Source: a phage
Sequence record: PZ386965.1
DNA: 64,000 nt
Strand: one strand, 5' to 3'
Part shown: one piece after another, positions 4,321 through 51,521 of the stretch
Layout of the letters: each line of letters opens with the position of its first letter
How positions within the stretch are numbered: position 1 is the stretch's first letter
Notes under the pieces: generated by a model
What the model was told of the DNA's origin: nothing
What the model saw: the letters and a program-made list of their open reading frames with translations, nothing else
Databases searched by the model: none
Program-made: the position numbers and the translations under genes

Positions 4321-7032
4321 TCAAAAATCGAACATATCGAACAGAGATGCTTTCTTCTCGTAATCGAGTTTCGCTGCTGATGTGAATCCTTCAAGTGGTT
4401 TAATAAATGTCTTCTCAAGGAGAACAGTGTAGTCCATCCAATGAAGTACGTCGTCTTTAATTAAATCTGTGATTTCAGTACCAGAAGGCCATGCGATACA
4501 TTTATCACCGAATGGGTTTCCTTCACGTAAAGGCAGAACATATACTTTTTCACCTTCTACAACTTGTGGAGCATCAATATTACCTTTGATAGCCCGGTTA
4601 TACGTCAGAATTCCACGAATATGGAACGGACATTTAGGGCCAGGGAATCCACCAACATCATATTTAGCAATGTTATTCGCAGAAGATACCGACGCGATGC
4701 TAATATAATTCAATTGACGGAATTCTTTTTCAAACTCTTTAAAATATTCTTGTAATGATTCTTCACCTTCTTGAAGCATACGACGAATACATTCCTTAAG
4801 AGCTTTCTGTACTGCTTTAGGAGTCGAAGATTTCTGAGTCTCGAGACCCATGATTTTGAGTTTAGGCTCAGCGTATCTGGTTCCTTCCATATCCCACACG
4901 TTTAATGCATAACGTTTCTTACCAGTCCAAAATCCGCCAATACCTTTAGAACCGAGCGGAGGGCCAGCAATAGCTTCTCGGTCCATGAACATTAAGTGTT
5001 GTTTATTGTTCATGTATTCACACATTTCACGGAAACCTCTATCAATAGCTGGTTCCATACGTTCACGTGCAAACTTATCTAAGAAGTCTACCCAATGGTT
5101 AGTATCACGGAATTTAGATTCACCAACCTTATCAATAATTTTATCTGCAGATACGTAAATAGAGTCTGTATCACCATAAAGAACGAAAGCTTCACCTTCT
5201 GTACCACAAACTTCATTCAGATATTCATTAACTTTACGTTCAATCCACTGTAAAGCCATTTGTCCGAATGTTGTGATTGCAGTAGCATTACGCAAATCAT
5301 AATAACGGAACCAGACGTTGCCAAGTGCACCATAAAGTGAGTTGATAAGCAATTTACGGTTAATTTGTGCAGTCATACCTGCAACTTCAGTACGTTGAGC
5401 TCTAAACAACATTTCATTAAGAGATTTAGCAGACAACTTTTTAATCTTTTCTTTAATCTCATCACTGAAGTCGAAACGATAATCAACATCTAATGGTTCG
5501 TCAACAGAAAGATTAGGATTATGCAATGCCTCTTTAATTATTTCACCGTTACGTTGAGCTGCAAGCATGTAACCTTTATGTTCTTTACGTTGATTAAAGA
5601 CCTTAGTGATTTCAGTTGGAACTACACCATCACGATCTTTATAATACATCATGCCGTTAGGAGAACAACTGTACACATCTGAAGGACGTTCAGCGATTGC
5701 GTTAATATAATCATGCAATGGAGCTACTTTAAACGTTCCTGCTATTGTTTCCGGGCTAATATTCACTTGGCGAATAATACTTGGATACAGAGATGTAAGG
5801 TCGAAACTCATTACATATTTGTATCGATTTGGAATAGGTTCCTTAACAAAAGCGCCAGGATAAGGTTGAACCGGGTGAGAACGACCTTGTGGAATCACCT
5901 TGTTCTGCTCTTTAAGGCTATTAAAAATAATAGCATCCCATGTTTTAATTGGGCTAAACACAGATTGAATCTGTATCTTAGCATAATAACCCATGTCCAA
6001 ACTCAAGTTGATGAACTGACGCTTAGCATCAATTTGCAATACACGATACACGTCGATAATGTTATAAGAAATATATCGTTGGTGATTGCTTTCACGAAGC
6101 TTAGAAATAGGGCCGTCATATTTCAGTTTACCAACGTTCAATTCAAATTCTGAAATGTAATCCAGAGAATACGACGGTTGATTGGTAAAAGAGAATTTTT
6201 TGTAAAGGTCGATATAATCAAGAACAGAGATACCGAACAATGTAATGATTTCACGAGAACCATACATGTTTTCGATAACTTTAACACGAGTTTTACGATG
6301 TGGTGATAAACGTTTCGCAGTAGATTCGCCAAAAATATTCTTGATTCTGTTATACACATATGGAATATCAAATGACTCAACGTTCCATCCAGTCAAAATG
6401 ACAGGAGTTTTCTGTTGCCAGAAGTTGAGATATTCCATCAACAATTCTTTTTCGTTATCGAACGGCATATAAATGATTTTATCGATAATTTCAGATGGAA
6501 CTTCATCACCACCTTGTTCTTGAAGCTTAGCCGCAATTTCGATAGACCATTCTTCTACATTACCATACGGAGAATTCAATAGATCAAATACGTAGAACCT
6601 GTCGTCAATTGAGTCATAATGGGTGATAGCATCAATCGGATGTTTTGCTTGTGACGGCTCAGGGAACCCATCCGGAGATGTTACTTCGATGTCGAAGTTA
6701 GCCACACGAATTTTTGTATGGTCGTATTTGATTTCATAGTTATAAGTGTCAGACAAATACGCCAATTTGAAATCGTCCATGCCAAGTGCTTCAAGTCCGA
6801 TATCTTCCATGCGTTTAATCCATTGGGAGGCATCACGCATATTAGCGAACAACTTACGAGTACACGGCTTACCGTAGATATCGAAATATTTCGTAGCCTG
6901 ACTTTCTGGACAATGAGCAAACAGTGATGGTTTATATTCTACTTCACGAGTACGTTCACGGCCATTAGAATCGATGTAACGTTCAAAAATTGAATCACCA
7001 ATCTGTTCAACCGTTAAGTAAAATTCTTTCAT
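4321..7032 (-). CDS. 43: DNA polymerase (family B, T4 gp43 type)
   Basis: 903 aa; exonuclease FDIEVTS and polymerase YGDTDS motifs; N-terminus MKEFYLTVEQIGDSIFERYID matches RB69/T4 gp43 as I recall it. Confidence 0.97.
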   Translation of the reverse strand: MKEFYLTVEQIGDSIFERYIDSNGRERTREVEYKPSLFAHCPESQATKYFDIYGKPCTRKLFANMRDASQWIKRMEDIGLEALGMDDFKLAYLSDTYNYEIKYDHTKIRVANFDIEVTSPDGFPEPSQAKHPIDAITHYDSIDDRFYVFDLLNSPYGNVEEWSIEIAAKLQEQGGDEVPSEIIDKIIYMPFDNEKELLMEYLNFWQQKTPVILTGWNVESFDIPYVYNRIKNIFGESTAKRLSPHRKTRVKVIENMYGSREIITLFGISVLDYIDLYKKFSFTNQPSYSLDYISEFELNVGKLKYDGPISKLRESNHQRYISYNIIDVYRVLQIDAKRQFINLSLDMGYYAKIQIQSVFSPIKTWDAIIFNSLKEQNKVIPQGRSHPVQPYPGAFVKEPIPNRYKYVMSFDLTSLYPSIIRQVNISPETIAGTFKVAPLHDYINAIAERPSDVYSCSPNGMMYYKDRDGVVPTEITKVFNQRKEHKGYMLAAQRNGEIIKEALHNPNLSVDEPLDVDYRFDFSDEIKEKIKKLSAKSLNEMLFRAQRTEVAGMTAQINRKLLINSLYGALGNVWFRYYDLRNATAITTFGQMALQWIERKVNEYLNEVCGTEGEAFVLYGDTDSIYVSADKIIDKVGESKFRDTNHWVDFLDKFARERMEPAIDRGFREMCEYMNNKQHLMFMDREAIAGPPLGSKGIGGFWTGKKRYALNVWDMEGTRYAEPKLKIMGLETQKSSTPKAVQKALKECIRRMLQEGEESLQEYFKEFEKEFRQLNYISIASVSSANNIAKYDVGGFPGPKCPFHIRGILTYNRAIKGNIDAPQVVEGEKVYVLPLREGNPFGDKCIAWPSGTEITDLIKDDVLHWMDYTVLLEKTFIKPLEGFTSAAKLDYEKKASLFDMFDF

Positions 7033-18456: not shown

Positions 18457-18780
18457 TCAATCTTCTATGATATCAGAGTCGTATCCTAATGAAATCAAGG
18501 ACTTTTTAAACTCTGCAATATTCTTTTGTTTCTTATCATTTAAAAATATGACAGGATAACGAATATTAAGTGAAGTGAATCCTGCACGTTTAGCAAGAGA
18601 TACGATTAAAGGACGATCATATTCAATCTTACCATTATTAGTGAGGACTTTATAAAATGTATAAGGAGCATTGAGCTCCTTTAAAAGTTTTGTAACGGTA
18701 TAACATCCTGGACAACGTCCAACTTCTTCAGGGATGCCATAGACTTCAATCTTATTCTTTAAGTTCGAGTTTTGTTCCAC
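18457..18780 (-). CDS. nrdH: glutaredoxin-like protein (NrdH-like), probable GTG start
   Basis: CPGC redox motif after KIEVYG strand; T4 nrdH position; GTG with AAGGAA RBS. Confidence 0.65.
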   Translation of the reverse strand: MEQNSNLKNKIEVYGIPEEVGRCPGCYTVTKLLKELNAPYTFYKVLTNNGKIEYDRPLIVSLAKRAGFTSLNIRYPVIFLNDKKQKNIAEFKKSLISLGYDSDIIED

Positions 18781-19063
18781 GAGAAATAATTCCTTGGTAA
18801 GCCCAATAAGGAGGATTAACAGAATCATCACCAGAATTTTCTTCAGGGAAATAAACCTGGATAACGAAGCCGGATTCATCAAAGGTGAAATAAGTAGTAG
18901 GCAGTTCACCTAACAAATCGGCACGAGCGTTGATTTCTTCGAGGTCTTGTTCACGTCCAGCCCAGAAGCTTGGGTTCAGACTACATTCATAGAAATAATA
19001 GTCATTACCGAACATATCAAACCCCTTCCAACTCTCTACCACGTACTGCTCAAAACTAATCAT
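18752..19063 (-). CDS. hypothetical protein
   Basis: 103-aa ORF. Confidence 0.5.
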   Translation of the reverse strand: MISFEQYVVESWKGFDMFGNDYYFYECSLNPSFWAGREQDLEEINARADLLGELPTTYFTFDESGFVIQVYFPEENSGDDSVNPPYWAYQGIISRGTKLELKE

Positions 19064-38811: not shown

Positions 38812-39141
38812 TTATACTCTAGGCTTTTGAGCTTGTTTGGTATTGGATTCCCATGCGGCTTTGGTAATTTTGTTAGCGGCATAACCAAAGGCATTAGATA
38901 GAACACCTTTAGAGTTGAATACATCCAATCCAATAAGTACACCGGCTGCGTTAAATTTAGGAGCAAAGTACGCATTAGTTTTAGAAAGAGCTTTTTTCAA
39001 TTCAGGGTCTTGAACCAAGCCATCAAAAACGCCTTTACTATTTACTTTATATGTTACTTTGGGATTCTTACCTTCTTCGATAGCAGCTTTCTGTTCCGCA
39101 GATAATGTAACTTCAGTGATAAACTCCTGATATGTTTTCAT
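38812..39141 (-). CDS. internal head protein (capsid-targeting MKTYQEF N-terminus)
   Basis: MKTYQEFITE start like T4 IP capsid targeting sequence. Confidence 0.7.
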   Translation of the reverse strand: MKTYQEFITEVTLSAEQKAAIEEGKNPKVTYKVNSKGVFDGLVQDPELKKALSKTNAYFAPKFNAAGVLIGLDVFNSKGVLSNAFGYAANKITKAAWESNTKQAQKPRV

Positions 39142-39166
39142 TTTGTTCCTATTGTTTTAATTTATG

Positions 39167-39481
39167 TTATTCTTTAGGGAAGTTTTTAGAGTATGCATCA
39201 TAAAGTTTATTACCAATACGACGGAAGACTTTAGCTGCAAAACGGTTTTCAGGGTTTTTAATCATGATTTGCATCATGTAAGTTCCTGCATCCGAAAGAG
39301 CTTCTTCATAGTACCCATTAATTTCTTTAAGAGTCCTACGTTTACCACCAGGACCGTCAACAGTAATTTTCCATTTACCTGTAGAAGTGCGGCTCGGTGG
39401 CTCAACTTGTTCAATCCAAATATAACCACCTTCAACGCGTTGGTTGGCGGATTCTGCAATAAATTCTTTATACGTTTTCAT
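39167..39481 (-). CDS. internal head protein (capsid-targeting N-terminus)
   Basis: MKTYKEFIAE start. Confidence 0.7.
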   Translation of the reverse strand: MKTYKEFIAESANQRVEGGYIWIEQVEPPSRTSTGKWKITVDGPGGKRRTLKEINGYYEEALSDAGTYMMQIMIKNPENRFAAKVFRRIGNKLYDAYSKNFPKE

Positions 39482-39545
39482 TTTTTGTTTCCTTGTTTGT
39501 TTTGATAGAGTAATTATACCATATTAATACTTAAGCGTAAACAAT

Positions 39546-39806
39546 TTAAGCTTTACCTCCAGAAATAATTCCGAAGTTGTTAAAATCGTATCCAATATCG
39601 TCAACATCTACTTTAGGACTTACTACAACATAAGCAATTTCACTACGTTTTGCATAGGTGTTGATTTCTTTACCATCGCCACCTAAGAAAGAATACCCAT
39701 TACGTTTTAATGAGCCAAAGTCTTCCGCATCACCAATGAAAGCTTTAACTTTAAATTTGGGGTCTTTGGCATCTGCTTCAATGATAAATTCTTGATACAT
39801 TTTCAT
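39546..39806 (-). CDS. internal head protein (capsid-targeting N-terminus)
   Basis: MKMYQEFIIE start with AAGGA RBS. Confidence 0.6.
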   Translation of the reverse strand: MKMYQEFIIEADAKDPKFKVKAFIGDAEDFGSLKRNGYSFLGGDGKEINTYAKRSEIAYVVVSPKVDVDDIGYDFNNFGIISGGKA

Positions 39807-39813
39807 TTTTTCC

Positions 39814-40227
39814 TTAGTAAATTGATTTACCATAGTATTTGTACCAAGACGGCCGTTGAGCAATTTTTTCATCTAAGCGTGCTTGACTTATCGCAATGGA
39901 CGCTTCGGACGGGACGTAATTATTACGAAATTCTACAGGAATGTCGGAAATATCCTGGACAGTCGTGTCCTTGATTTTGAAACCACGTTTCAAGCATTCA
40001 GCGATTAGCTCGATTTGACGTAAACGTAAAAATTCGAGTTTGTCGTAAAAGAATGTTACGTGACCTGTGCCTAAGATAAATGTTGGAGAGATTTTAAAAT
40101 CCTTTACACGTTTACCGTTTTGAACATGTTTACGGACTGCACCAAATACGCGTGGTAATTCACGATACTCGGCCATAAGATGTTGGTCGGCCAGTTCAGA
40201 AACAAGTGTTAAATTGATACGGGTCAT
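39814..40227 (-). CDS. denV: pyrimidine dimer DNA glycosylase DenV (endonuclease V)
   Basis: [34 protein letters not shown] collinear with T4 DenV; 137 aa. Confidence 0.95.
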
Positions 40228-40230
40228 AAT

Positions 40231-40280
40231 TTCCTCCAAGTAGTTGATGAATGTATAGTATCAAAACTCTTGGAGGAAGT
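40231..40280 (-). promoter_or_regulatory. early promoter / stem-loop cassette
   Basis: TTCCTCCAAG..CTTGGAGGAA inverted repeat around -10, GTTTAC -35 on minus. Confidence 0.5.
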
Positions 40281-40285
40281 AAACA

Positions 40286-40567
40286 CTATTTTTCTGAAGC
40301 GCCTGAAATATATTTTTCAAGACGTTGTTTCATCAGCGAGCCGTTCTTAGCAATTTCTTCCGGTTTATCGCACATGCGCAACAATGCTTCAAGCTTAACG
40401 ATATCACTGGTACGTTCAAATTTGCGAGTATCTATCTTACTAGCAAGTTCAGAAATACGTGCTAATAGACTTTCAGCTTCAACCAAAGCTGCACCTAGCT
40501 TAGTTGCAAATGTGTCAGTAGCTTCGTTAAGAATAGATTCTGATAAAAATTCACTATATGTTTTCAT
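40286..40567 (-). CDS. internal head protein (capsid-targeting N-terminus)
   Basis: [10 protein letters not shown] start. Confidence 0.65.
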
Positions 40568-41052
40568 ATATACGCTTTCCAAGTTCCTGTTTTAAATGTT
40601 GAGATTACGCGTTTCGCTCGATTAGGTGTCTGACGATACCATTTAGATTGGGCTAGATTTACTGCCGCCTCGTCCCAACGTTTCTGTTGAAGCATACGAA
40701 GAGAATTAGTAAAACCGGCAACGCCTGCTACACCCATTTGGAAGACCATATTGATCAATGCACATCGACGAACCGCATCTAAAGAATCATATACCGGTTT
40801 AAGTTTAGCATTACCCAAGATTCCTCGAACGGCTTTATCAACGTCTTCATTAAATAGCTTTTCAGCCTCATCAAGGGTAATTGTACCGTTGCATTTACGA
40901 CCGATCATTCTGTCAAGTTCAGCTTTAGCTACGGCTAAAGACGGGTTCTTTGTTACTAAATGGCCTATGCCAATCGTCCAAAAGCCTTCAGTGTCTTTAT
41001 ATAAAGTCAGTCTAAGACCTTCGTCATTACGAAGCATTTCAAATATATTCAT
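40564..41052 (-). CDS. e: endolysin (T4 lysozyme)
   Basis: [32 protein letters not shown] with catalytic Glu/Asp/Thr positions as in T4 lysozyme. Confidence 0.96.
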
Positions 41053-41080
41053 AATACCTCCCACGTTTATAGGAGGTATT
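41053..41080 (-). promoter_or_regulatory. RBS-sequestering hairpin with embedded late-promoter-like TATAAACG upstream of e
   Basis: Minus RNA ACCUCC-UAUAAACGU-GGGAGGU-AUU-AUG: SD paired in stem. Confidence 0.6.
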
Positions 41081-41086
41081 TATTAC

Positions 41087-48638: not shown

Positions 48639-49259
48639 TTACTTACGAGTTTTTGCATACTGAGCAGCGTCAGCAGCCAAACGACCTGCCTGACGAAGTT
48701 TTTCTTTAATCTCATCATGAAGTGGTTGAGTATACTTCAAACCTTCGATAGTCAAATAAAGACGATAAAGGTCTGGGGTGTCAAGGTTGTTGATATGTTG
48801 GCCATTACGAAGAATATTGAATTCACGAACGAGTGAAGATGTATCAGATTCAATATCACGAACAAGCGAAGATAGTTGTTTATATTTTTTTTCCAGGCTA
48901 GAAGTATCAAACTTAAGAGCAGGAGCTTTAGGAGCTGCTTTTACTTCCGGCTTAGGCTCAGGTTTTGCTTTAGGGGTCGCAGGTTTAGGAATGGTAGGAG
49001 CAGGTTTTACTTTAGGCGAACCAGATTTAGCAGAAACACCACCACTAACAATATCTTTGAATGCTTTAGAAGCTCTGTAATATTCTTTTTGGCTGGAAGT
49101 GTCGATACCATACATGGCTTGAACGTTTTTGAAAAACTCTGTACTAGTTTTTGTACCAGAAATAGCATCGTAAGCAGCTTGCCATTTCTCTTTTGTCATG
49201 CGTACACCGGCTTCGGTGATTACTTCCGTTTCGGCTAAAAATTCATTAAAAGTATACAT
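48639..49259 (-). CDS. internal-protein-like protein with Pro/Lys-rich linker (variant capsid-targeting N-terminus)
   Basis: MYTFNEFLAE start; PKPATPKAKPEPKPEVKAAPKAP linker; late promoter TATAAATA upstream. Confidence 0.6.
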   Translation of the reverse strand: MYTFNEFLAETEVITEAGVRMTKEKWQAAYDAISGTKTSTEFFKNVQAMYGIDTSSQKEYYRASKAFKDIVSGGVSAKSGSPKVKPAPTIPKPATPKAKPEPKPEVKAAPKAPALKFDTSSLEKKYKQLSSLVRDIESDTSSLVREFNILRNGQHINNLDTPDLYRLYLTIEGLKYTQPLHDEIKEKLRQAGRLAADAAQYAKTRK

Positions 49260-49286: not shown

Positions 49287-49296
49287 GTTTACTATA
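49287..49296 (-). promoter_or_regulatory. late promoter TATAAATA
   Basis: Plus-strand tatttata = TATAAATA on minus about 30 nt upstream of ATG at 49259. Confidence 0.55.
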
Positions 49297-49304
49297 TTTA
49301 TACA

Positions 49305-49337
49305 AAAAAGCCCCAACCTTTCGGAAGGGGCTTTATA
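49305..49337 (-). terminator. rho-independent terminator
   Basis: AGCCCCTTCCGAAAGGTTGGGGCT hairpin followed by TTTTTTG on minus. Confidence 0.75.
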
Positions 49338-49997: not shown

Positions 49998-50074
<77 letters not shown>

Positions 50075-50080
50075 AATATA

Positions 50081-50154
50081 TGACCCAGACCAGATTCGAA
50101 CTGGTAACCTTTCCCTTATGAGGGGACTGCTGCTAACCATTGAGCTACAGGGCC
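50081..50154 (-). tRNA. tRNA with CAU anticodon (Met or lysidine-Ile)
   Basis: Hand-folded: D-arm TAGCTCAATGGTTAGC, anticodon loop CTCATAA, T-arm ACCAG-TTCGAAT-CTGGT, acceptor with one mismatch. Confidence 0.7.
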
Positions 50155-51156: not shown

Positions 51157-51444
51157 TTACAGAAGAGTTTTTGCAATAATTTTAAGTTGAGCTACAGAAA
51201 TATGCTTAGCTTTAAACAGTGCGGTCTCTTCAGCCGGAGAGATAACAATAGTAGCGCCATCTTTCTTAGCAGACCATCCATCCCCTAAGTAAACAGTACC
51301 TTTTACTTCTTCGCCGTCAACCAGACTAATCATTGGTTTACCCTCACGGCCTTTGTTTGCTTTAATAACTTCGGAAGTAAGGGTTGCTTCGGTCAGAGTA
51401 GAAACGTTAGCAACAGGTGATATAAATTCTTTATAGGTTTTCAT
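51157..51444 (-). CDS. internal head protein (capsid-targeting N-terminus; ipI position)
   Basis: MKTYKEFISP start; 95 aa; adjacent to 57B as T4 ipI. Confidence 0.7.
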   Translation of the reverse strand: MKTYKEFISPVANVSTLTEATLTSEVIKANKGREGKPMISLVDGEEVKGTVYLGDGWSAKKDGATIVISPAEETALFKAKHISVAQLKIIAKTLL

Positions 51445-51460
51445 TTTATTTCCTTGAGGT

Positions 51461-51510
51461 TGTTTATTTGATAGGATGATAGTAACACACCATCATCCTT
51501 ATGTAAACCA
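51461..51510 (-). promoter_or_regulatory. early promoter / stem-loop cassette
   Basis: AGGATGAT..ATCATCCT inverted repeat, GTAAAC element. Confidence 0.5.
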
Positions 51511-51521
51511 TTTTGTGAAAA

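Follow-up and report, generated by a model that had tools for sequence, protein, structure and literature searches.

Six open reading frames of a phage genome start with nearly the same short peptide and continue into dissimilar proteins, which raises the question of what this leader does and what kind of cargo it carries. The window analysed here, a stretch of 64,000 nucleotides (sequence record PZ386965.1), shares 98.4% identity with Escherichia phage p000y, 98.0% with APCEc01 and 97.7% with RB69 in sequence comparison, and by these values it is a Mosigvirus, an RB69-like phage of the T4 family. The original prediction had placed six ORFs led by a T4 capsid-targeting sequence (CTS) in this window; all six, designated A to F below, are present at the coordinates given there, and all lie on the minus strand. 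The combination of diverse cargoes with a conserved CTS that is seen here is the established internal-protein (Ip) system of T-even phages and as such is already known. We consider it likely that the six ORFs are the ip genes of an RB69-like phage, that is, exchangeable cassettes whose products are packaged by means of the CTS, cut by gp21, injected together with the DNA and most likely directed against nucleases.

The leader was searched for with the pattern MK[TM]Y.EF[IL], which has five matches in the six-frame translation of the window, each at the start of an ORF, and no occurrence in 100 shuffles of the window. A relaxed form of the pattern has six matches, again all at ORF starts, compared with 0-0.06 expected. 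A relaxed motif scan for a seventh CTS gene returned only one weak candidate (18752-19063). According to mutational work, targeting depends mainly on residues 4 and 7 of the leader, while processing depends on residues 8 and 10 (PMC9026906). The published targeting and processing residues are present in all six ORFs, in line with the original reading of the leader as the capsid-targeting sequence of T4. Position 4 is aromatic and position 7 is Phe in six of six cases (Y4/F7 in A-E, F4/F7 in F). The tripeptide (L/I)-x-E stands at residues 8-10 as ITE in A, IAE in B, IIE in C, LSE in D and LAE in F; E has LTE at residues 17-19, where T4 IPI has ITE. A putative site of this form for the prohead protease gp21 closes the propeptide in all six, and cleavage at it is predicted. 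The RB69 copy of A carries Ala instead of Glu at position 10, so that cleavage there is not universally conserved.

The two Ip loci of T-even phages are e-denV and ipI-57B. A-D are found at the former, where T4 has ipII and ipIII, and E is found at the ipI locus. The clustering around denV described in the original prediction is real: denV (endonuclease V, 39814..40239, minus strand; Pfam Pyr_excise, E = 7e-14), a landmark inside the Ip array and not itself an internal protein, sits between C and D and is thus flanked by A-C and D. The first member of the array, A (38812..39141, minus strand; 109 aa, beginning MKTYQEFITE), is a CTS-bearing internal-protein candidate with a predicted mature form of 99 aa and a pI of 9.7. 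It is equivalent to RB69ORF123c and belongs to phrog_3966; its sole relatives among 5.8 billion proteins are at least 98% identical. Matches to A were obtained in 91 phage records; identity is below 80% in 14 of these, and it is 35-36% in the two weakest among the matches listed.

B (39167..39481, minus strand; 104 aa, beginning MKTYKEFIAE; predicted mature form of 94 aa, pI 9.6) was grouped with Ip10 of phage Pol (CAA84455) in one cluster at 90% identity, which also holds Tequatrovirus entries named 'IpII/internal head protein'; by this clustering B is an internal protein of the Ip10 type. RB69ORF124c represents B truncated at the C-terminus. The occurrence of B at 90% identity or more in both Tequatrovirus and Mosigvirus implies that cassettes clearly move between genera. 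The internal protein C (39546..39806, minus strand; 86 aa, beginning MKMYQEFIIE; predicted mature form of 76 aa, pI 5.2) starts at an internal ATG of a longer ORF (39546-39872), with a TAAGGA Shine-Dalgarno sequence 5 nt upstream. The same start is used in the annotation of RB69, where C is RB69ORF125c. C matches phrog_2667 ('internal head protein') and occurs in 218 phage records. The internal protein D (40286..40567, minus strand; 93 aa; predicted mature form of 83 aa, pI 6.3) is RB69ORF127c, matches phrog_3499 ('internal head protein', E = 1e-46) and occurs in 497 phage records. Both C and D are already labelled 'internal head protein' in the RefSeq record of APCEc01; the RB69 equivalents of A-D (RB69ORF123c, 124c, 125c and 127c) are 'hypothetical' in the 2003 record of that phage. 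The ATG of D overlaps the stop codon of the lysozyme gene e (40564..41052, minus strand; Pfam Phage_lysozyme), located just upstream, as ATGA, and this overlap implies translational coupling of D to a late gene.

E (51157..51444, minus strand; 95 aa) is composed of a 19-residue propeptide (MKTYKEFISPVANVSTLTE) and the 76-aa IPI*. It matches the Pfam family IPI_T4 (PF11634) with E = 1.3e-50 and a score of 169.7 bits (gathering cut-off 25) over all 76 positions of the profile, and the PDB entry 2JUB with E = 5.8e-42. Mature E differs from T4 IPI* at four residues. The same four differences have been published for RB69 IPI, which reportedly protects against restriction by GmrSD and enzymes related to it (PMC6024577). 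On the strength of this homology, E is the orthologue of IPI (Ip1).

The predicted promoter layout of the window follows the T4 plan, in which individual ip genes are preceded by early promoters and e by a late one. Early promoters of the T4 type were located just upstream of B (39513..39542, minus strand; GTTTAC-N17-TATAAT, with TG) and upstream of ipI (51479..51508, minus strand), where T4 has a homologous promoter, and an early-type promoter precedes denV (40255-40284). In T4, such promoters (GTTTAC...TAnnnT) lie directly before ipIII, ipII, denV and ipI. Upstream of e there is a late-promoter-like AATAAATA (41077..41084, minus strand) with one mismatch to TATAAATA; the homologous site of T4 has two TATAAATA late promoters. 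The e promoter probably supplies late transcription of the Ip array.

The remaining ORF, F (48639..49259, minus strand; 206 aa), begins with the variant CTS MYTFNEFLAE. Its position, outside both classical Ip loci, is a third locus past the tRNA genes, with e.8 as one neighbour and the tRNA-Arg/Met genes as the other. F is preceded by an exact T4 late promoter (TATAAATA, 49295..49302, minus strand) at a distance of 43 nt, and directly upstream of this promoter there is an intrinsic terminator, GCCCCTTCC-GAAA-GGTTGGGGC followed by T6 (49304..49331, minus strand). The same arrangement of terminator and late promoter is kept in an IME281-like contig (locus L037). F belongs to phrog_2280, whose function is unknown, and all of its 18 homologues are unnamed. 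The site of F is occupied in RB69 and in two IMG/VR contigs by a very divergent allele, which starts with MKTYAEFLTEA and, in the RB69 record, is split into ORF149c and ORF148c.

Structure prediction of the cargoes, suggested as a check in the original prediction, was informative in part. From the N- to the C-terminus, the AlphaFold2 model of F (mean pLDDT 72) shows a small helical domain (residues ~20-72), a disordered linker (74-111) and a three-helix domain predicted with confidence (117-206); the linker, originally described as rich in Pro and Lys, is rich in Pro, Lys and Ala. This model gave no informative match: the best Foldseek hit in PDB had an E-value of 1.9, with generic helical hairpins, and the BFVD search returned uncharacterised homologues from T4-like phages only. 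The predicted structure of C, with a mean pLDDT of 44.6, was unusable for a fold search.

F might alternatively be a late protein that has another role in the virion or its assembly and is not injected, with its likeness to the CTS due to shared ancestry or chance. Such a role would fit the position of F outside both Ip loci, its size of twice that of the others, its long disordered linker, the absence of annotation for the family everywhere we looked, and the departure of the window allele from the leader consensus at two positions (Tyr2/Phe4 instead of Lys2/Tyr4). However, the canonical MKTYNEFLNES opens most of the 14 aligned members of the family, and the window allele has the variant MYTFNEFLAET; all members keep Phe7, and all have Tyr or Phe at position 4. 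T4 IPI likewise has Phe at position 4 (MKTFKEF), T4 IPIII (193 aa) is near F in size, and the exact late promoter suits a virion component. A role other than that of an injected protein is in our view unlikely for F, though it keeps some weight. Tentatively, and at the same low level of confidence, we suggest that the F family may form an unrecognised two-domain class of internal proteins of ~200 aa, with its own late promoter, a third Ip locus beside the tRNA genes and at least two very divergent alleles that replace each other there, and that, together with the Mosigvirus-restricted A, it might target defences specific for the arabinosyl-hmC-DNA of RB69-like phages, not the GmrSD variants met by glucosyl-hmC phages.

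Behind the leader, the claim that the ORFs are otherwise unrelated to one another was borne out at sequence level. BLAST among the six leaderless proteins gave nothing better than E = 0.76. In hhalign comparisons of every window family with a further 25 CTS clusters, T4 IPII and IPIII among them, probabilities did not exceed 1.8%, the exception being F against its RB69-type allele (17.5%); with this best value of 1.8%, a remote link of the cargoes to T4 IPII/IPIII or to other CTS clusters was rejected. None of the window proteins falls into the PHROGs of T4 IPII (phrog_7857) or IPIII (phrog_5341), and in PDB, sequence searches with A, B, D or F as the query yielded nothing below E = 0.07. The sole contrary hint is that A and B both match phrog_3966, and do so after removal of the leader as well. 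A relationship of A to B was tentatively rejected at a leaderless hhalign probability of 0.7%, obtained from alignments with Neff of ~1, and phrog_3966 is treated as heterogeneous or leader-driven. The six cargoes are mutually unrelated as far as sequence methods tell.

The notion of an expanded arsenal holds relative to T4, which has three internal proteins, but not relative to the group norm: RB69 has seven in the same regions, and T4-like contigs from IMG/VR have 4-6, so that the six Ip genes of the window are more than in T4 but normal for the group. An IMG/VR search with a CTS-coding DNA pattern retrieved at least 120 stretches, and at least 135 distinct CTS-starting ORFs of up to 300 aa from these stretches fall into at least 69 cargo clusters. 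Tandem arrays are common in this sample, with five genes at locus L085 and six across loci L017 and L037 of the IME281-like contig. The Ip gene content is also polymorphic among close relatives. RB69 has the additional ORF156c (beginning MKTYQEFIAEATKADKNF) between ipI and 57B, which is absent from the window, as well as the different allele of F, and T4 has another set. Since RB69-group phages are without the IPII and IPIII of T4, their targets likely differ.

The T4 precedent on which the original prediction drew agrees with published work: the leader directs proteins into the prohead core, gp21 cuts after Glu10, the products are injected along with the DNA, and IPI acts as an inhibitor of a restriction enzyme (PMC9026906, PMC3012670, PMC12373910). 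This mechanism is documented directly for T4 only and, in part, for RB69 IPI (PMC6024577). For the present phage, the motif, the locus, the promoter layout and homology point to targeting, cleavage, co-injection and neutralisation of nucleases, and from these we infer packaging of A-D and F and inhibition of defence systems by them. In the proposed mechanism, the CTS would bind the scaffolding core, by which the protein would be built into the prohead, and the gp21 cut after (L/I)-x-E would fall behind residue 19 in IPI and behind residue 10 in the five others. Once processed, the protein would stay in the head with the DNA and would enter the host with it, before any phage gene is expressed. 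The cargoes would be non-homologous cassettes swapped between phages, and their most likely job would be to neutralise host nucleases that are the first to strike the incoming modified DNA, above all GmrSD type IV enzymes, with one inhibitor per enzyme variant. Because internal proteins enter with the DNA and act ahead of phage gene expression, they would amount to a natural catalogue of inhibitors of first-response defences.

Silas et al. (2025) found that Ip1, Ip2 and Ip3 act as inhibitors of GmrSD type IV restriction enzymes, each of a different one; with at least 10 Ips reported, all genes of both loci were proposed to target GmrSD variants (PMC12373910). Ip4-Ip10 showed no reproducible inhibition against representatives of 15 GmrSD groups (PMC12373910 and its supplement), so that the targets of these proteins, the B-type Ip10 included, may lie outside GmrSD. 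Internal proteins help to set the host range, and IPIII is needed for infection of ECOR17 (Srikant et al. 2022, PMC9391042).

The result for Ip4-Ip10 also speaks for an older explanation, by which the packaged proteins are mainly structural counter-ions or condensation aids for DNA, as classically assumed for the basic internal proteins of T4, and not inhibitors of defence. Lysines of the T4 proteins touch DNA phosphates by NMR (PMC3012670), and the mature forms of A, B, E and F have basic pI values of 9.0-9.7. However, mature C and D lack the basic character of the T4 proteins, being acidic or neutral, a generic charge leaves non-homologous and quickly exchanged cargoes unexplained, and specific enzyme targets are now known for all three T4 internal proteins (PMC12373910). 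We regard a mainly structural function as improbable and retain co-injected nuclease inhibitors as the preferred reading.

At the DNA level, a blind repeat finder detected a direct repeat of four copies, one at the 5' end of each of A-D, which corresponds to the 32 nt that encode the CTS and has 72-81% identity. The wobble codons vary within the leader (ACA, ACG, ACC or ACT for Thr3 and ATC, ATT or ATA for Ile8), and this synonymous variation argues for selection on the peptide and not on the DNA alone. That the shared 5' segment is a DNA-level module of ribosome-binding site and recombination linker, with a peptide devoid of targeting function here, would agree with the reach of the repeat into the 5' UTR of A-C and with cassettes that cross genera, as B does, but is highly improbable against amino acids kept while wobble positions vary, a peptide kept in all those unrelated cargo clusters of the IMG/VR sample, and the finding that, in T4, GFP and other foreign proteins are packaged when they carry only ten CTS residues (PMC9026906). 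A role of the segment as a DNA module and a role of its peptide in targeting are not mutually exclusive.

The polymorphism of internal proteins has a long history. Repoila, Tetart, Bouet and Krisch (EMBO J 1994) reportedly described polymorphic T-even proteins of the Ip4-Ip12 type and named Ip10 of phage Pol. A later account likewise places a conserved CTS on diverse cargoes in two hypervariable loci on record since 1994 (PMC3012670). No virion proteomics for RB69-like phages was found in the searchable literature, and a literature search with the RB69 ORF names and the names Ip7-Ip10 returned no relevant paper. Several of the six proteins are already named or annotated, and the practical value of the present analysis is limited. 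What is modestly new concerns A and the F family, both 'hypothetical' in all records seen, and the third locus. In the records retrieved, neither A nor the F family carries an Ip name or the label 'internal protein'. These two families of 'hypothetical' database entries can be flagged as probable injected proteins, and the locus of F, a third one, is driven by a late promoter, shows allelic replacement and is worth screening.

Several known systems resemble the genes described here to different degrees. The Dar proteins of phage P1 are large, are incorporated hierarchically via DarA/Hdf and target type I R-M rather than type IV enzymes. They have no sequence relationship to the window proteins; they are likewise packaged in the capsid, injected with the DNA and block restriction at entry (PMC12810830). 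The ejection proteins of the giant phage SPN3US and of other phiKZ-like phages also lie inside the head and have propeptides cut by a T4-like prohead protease (PMC5694885, PMC7411985), but they are much larger and have other propeptides. The internal proteins IPI, IPII and IPIII of T4 have the same MKTYQEFIAE-type leader, gp21 motif, e-denV and ipI-57B loci and mixture of early and late promoters. The differences are that T4 has two ip genes between e and denV, whereas the window has four on both sides of denV, that the window is without a homologue of IPII or IPIII, and that F occupies an added site beyond the tRNA genes. As for the ejection proteins, we know of no report of an MKTYxEF leader among them, and with the polymorphic Ip4-Ip12-type proteins the window shares precisely the combination of a conserved CTS, unrelated cargoes and hypervariable loci, B clustering with Ip10 itself.

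Between ipI and 57B, RB69 carries an extra gene with a T4-type N-terminal capsid-targeting sequence (CTS), RB69ORF156c (MKTYQEFIAEATKADKNF..., phrog_2667; positions 5784-6110 of the RB69 reference locus L004), and the corresponding position in the window is a bare 77-nt intergenic spacer (51445-51521). As judged from the sequence comparison, RB69ORF156c is a cassette that is present or absent between phages about 97% identical. The RB69 counterpart of the CTS protein A (window 38812-39141), RB69ORF123c (L001:2313-2642, in a second RB69 reference locus), lacks the cleavage residue Glu10, because residues 7-10 read FIAA instead of the FITE of the window. The next (L/I)-x-E site downstream in RB69ORF123c is IEE at residues 21-23.

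Some differences concern the RB69 GenBank record itself. The N-terminus of the CTS protein D is given there as MKTYMNFYQNLSLNE (RB69ORF127c, L001:3786-4067), whereas window D (40286-40567) and APCEc01 agree with each other and differ from it. It looks as if a compensating frameshift pair masks the CTS of RB69ORF127c in the reference; the discrepancy may reflect a sequencing error or a genuine difference. Two further reference entries look truncated by frameshifts when compared with their relatives: the Ip10-type protein RB69ORF124c (L001:2711-2983), with 90 aa versus 104 aa, and the RB69-type F allele RB69ORF148c/149c (L004:2429-2991), with 146 aa versus 187 aa in the IMG/VR contigs L073 and L115.

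In PHROGs, phrog_3966 takes in both A and the Ip10-type protein B (window 38812-39481), each of which matches it at E < 1e-23 even with the leader removed. Profile-profile comparison of mature A with mature B found no similarity (0.7% probability). Among the listed matches of the IMG/VR scan, ORFs with the MKTYxEF leader formed recurring families, MKTYQEFISEAKKCWPGYKKKGTQK... (L007, L012, L056, L065) and MKTYREFIAEAGDWWHPDPEQDK... (L066, L083, L097, L119). The contigs that carry them are metagenomic, measure 4-72 kb and do not obviously belong to coliphage genomes of ~170 kb. The leader may be in use well outside enterobacterial Tevenvirinae. In the window, the sole additional match of a relaxed CTS scan was a 103-aa ORF of unknown function (18752-19063, minus strand; phrog_2749), the start of which, MISFEQYVVE, is a weak CTS-like pattern with aromatic residues at positions 4 and 7 and V-x-E at 8-10.

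The stretch that separates the ipI region from F holds the tRNA-Arg(TCT) and tRNA-Met(CAT) genes (49998-50154, minus strand), a far smaller group than the eight-gene tRNA cluster of T4. T4-type early promoters (GTTTAC-N16-18-TAnnnT) were located on the minus strand at 40284, 39542, 38705, 51508, 51153 and 48586. Nearly every boundary between an Ip cassette and its neighbour in the window carries such a promoter. These boundary promoters could have a second role, as conserved linkers through which cassettes recombine. In T4, early promoters are likewise found at almost all Ip cassette boundaries.
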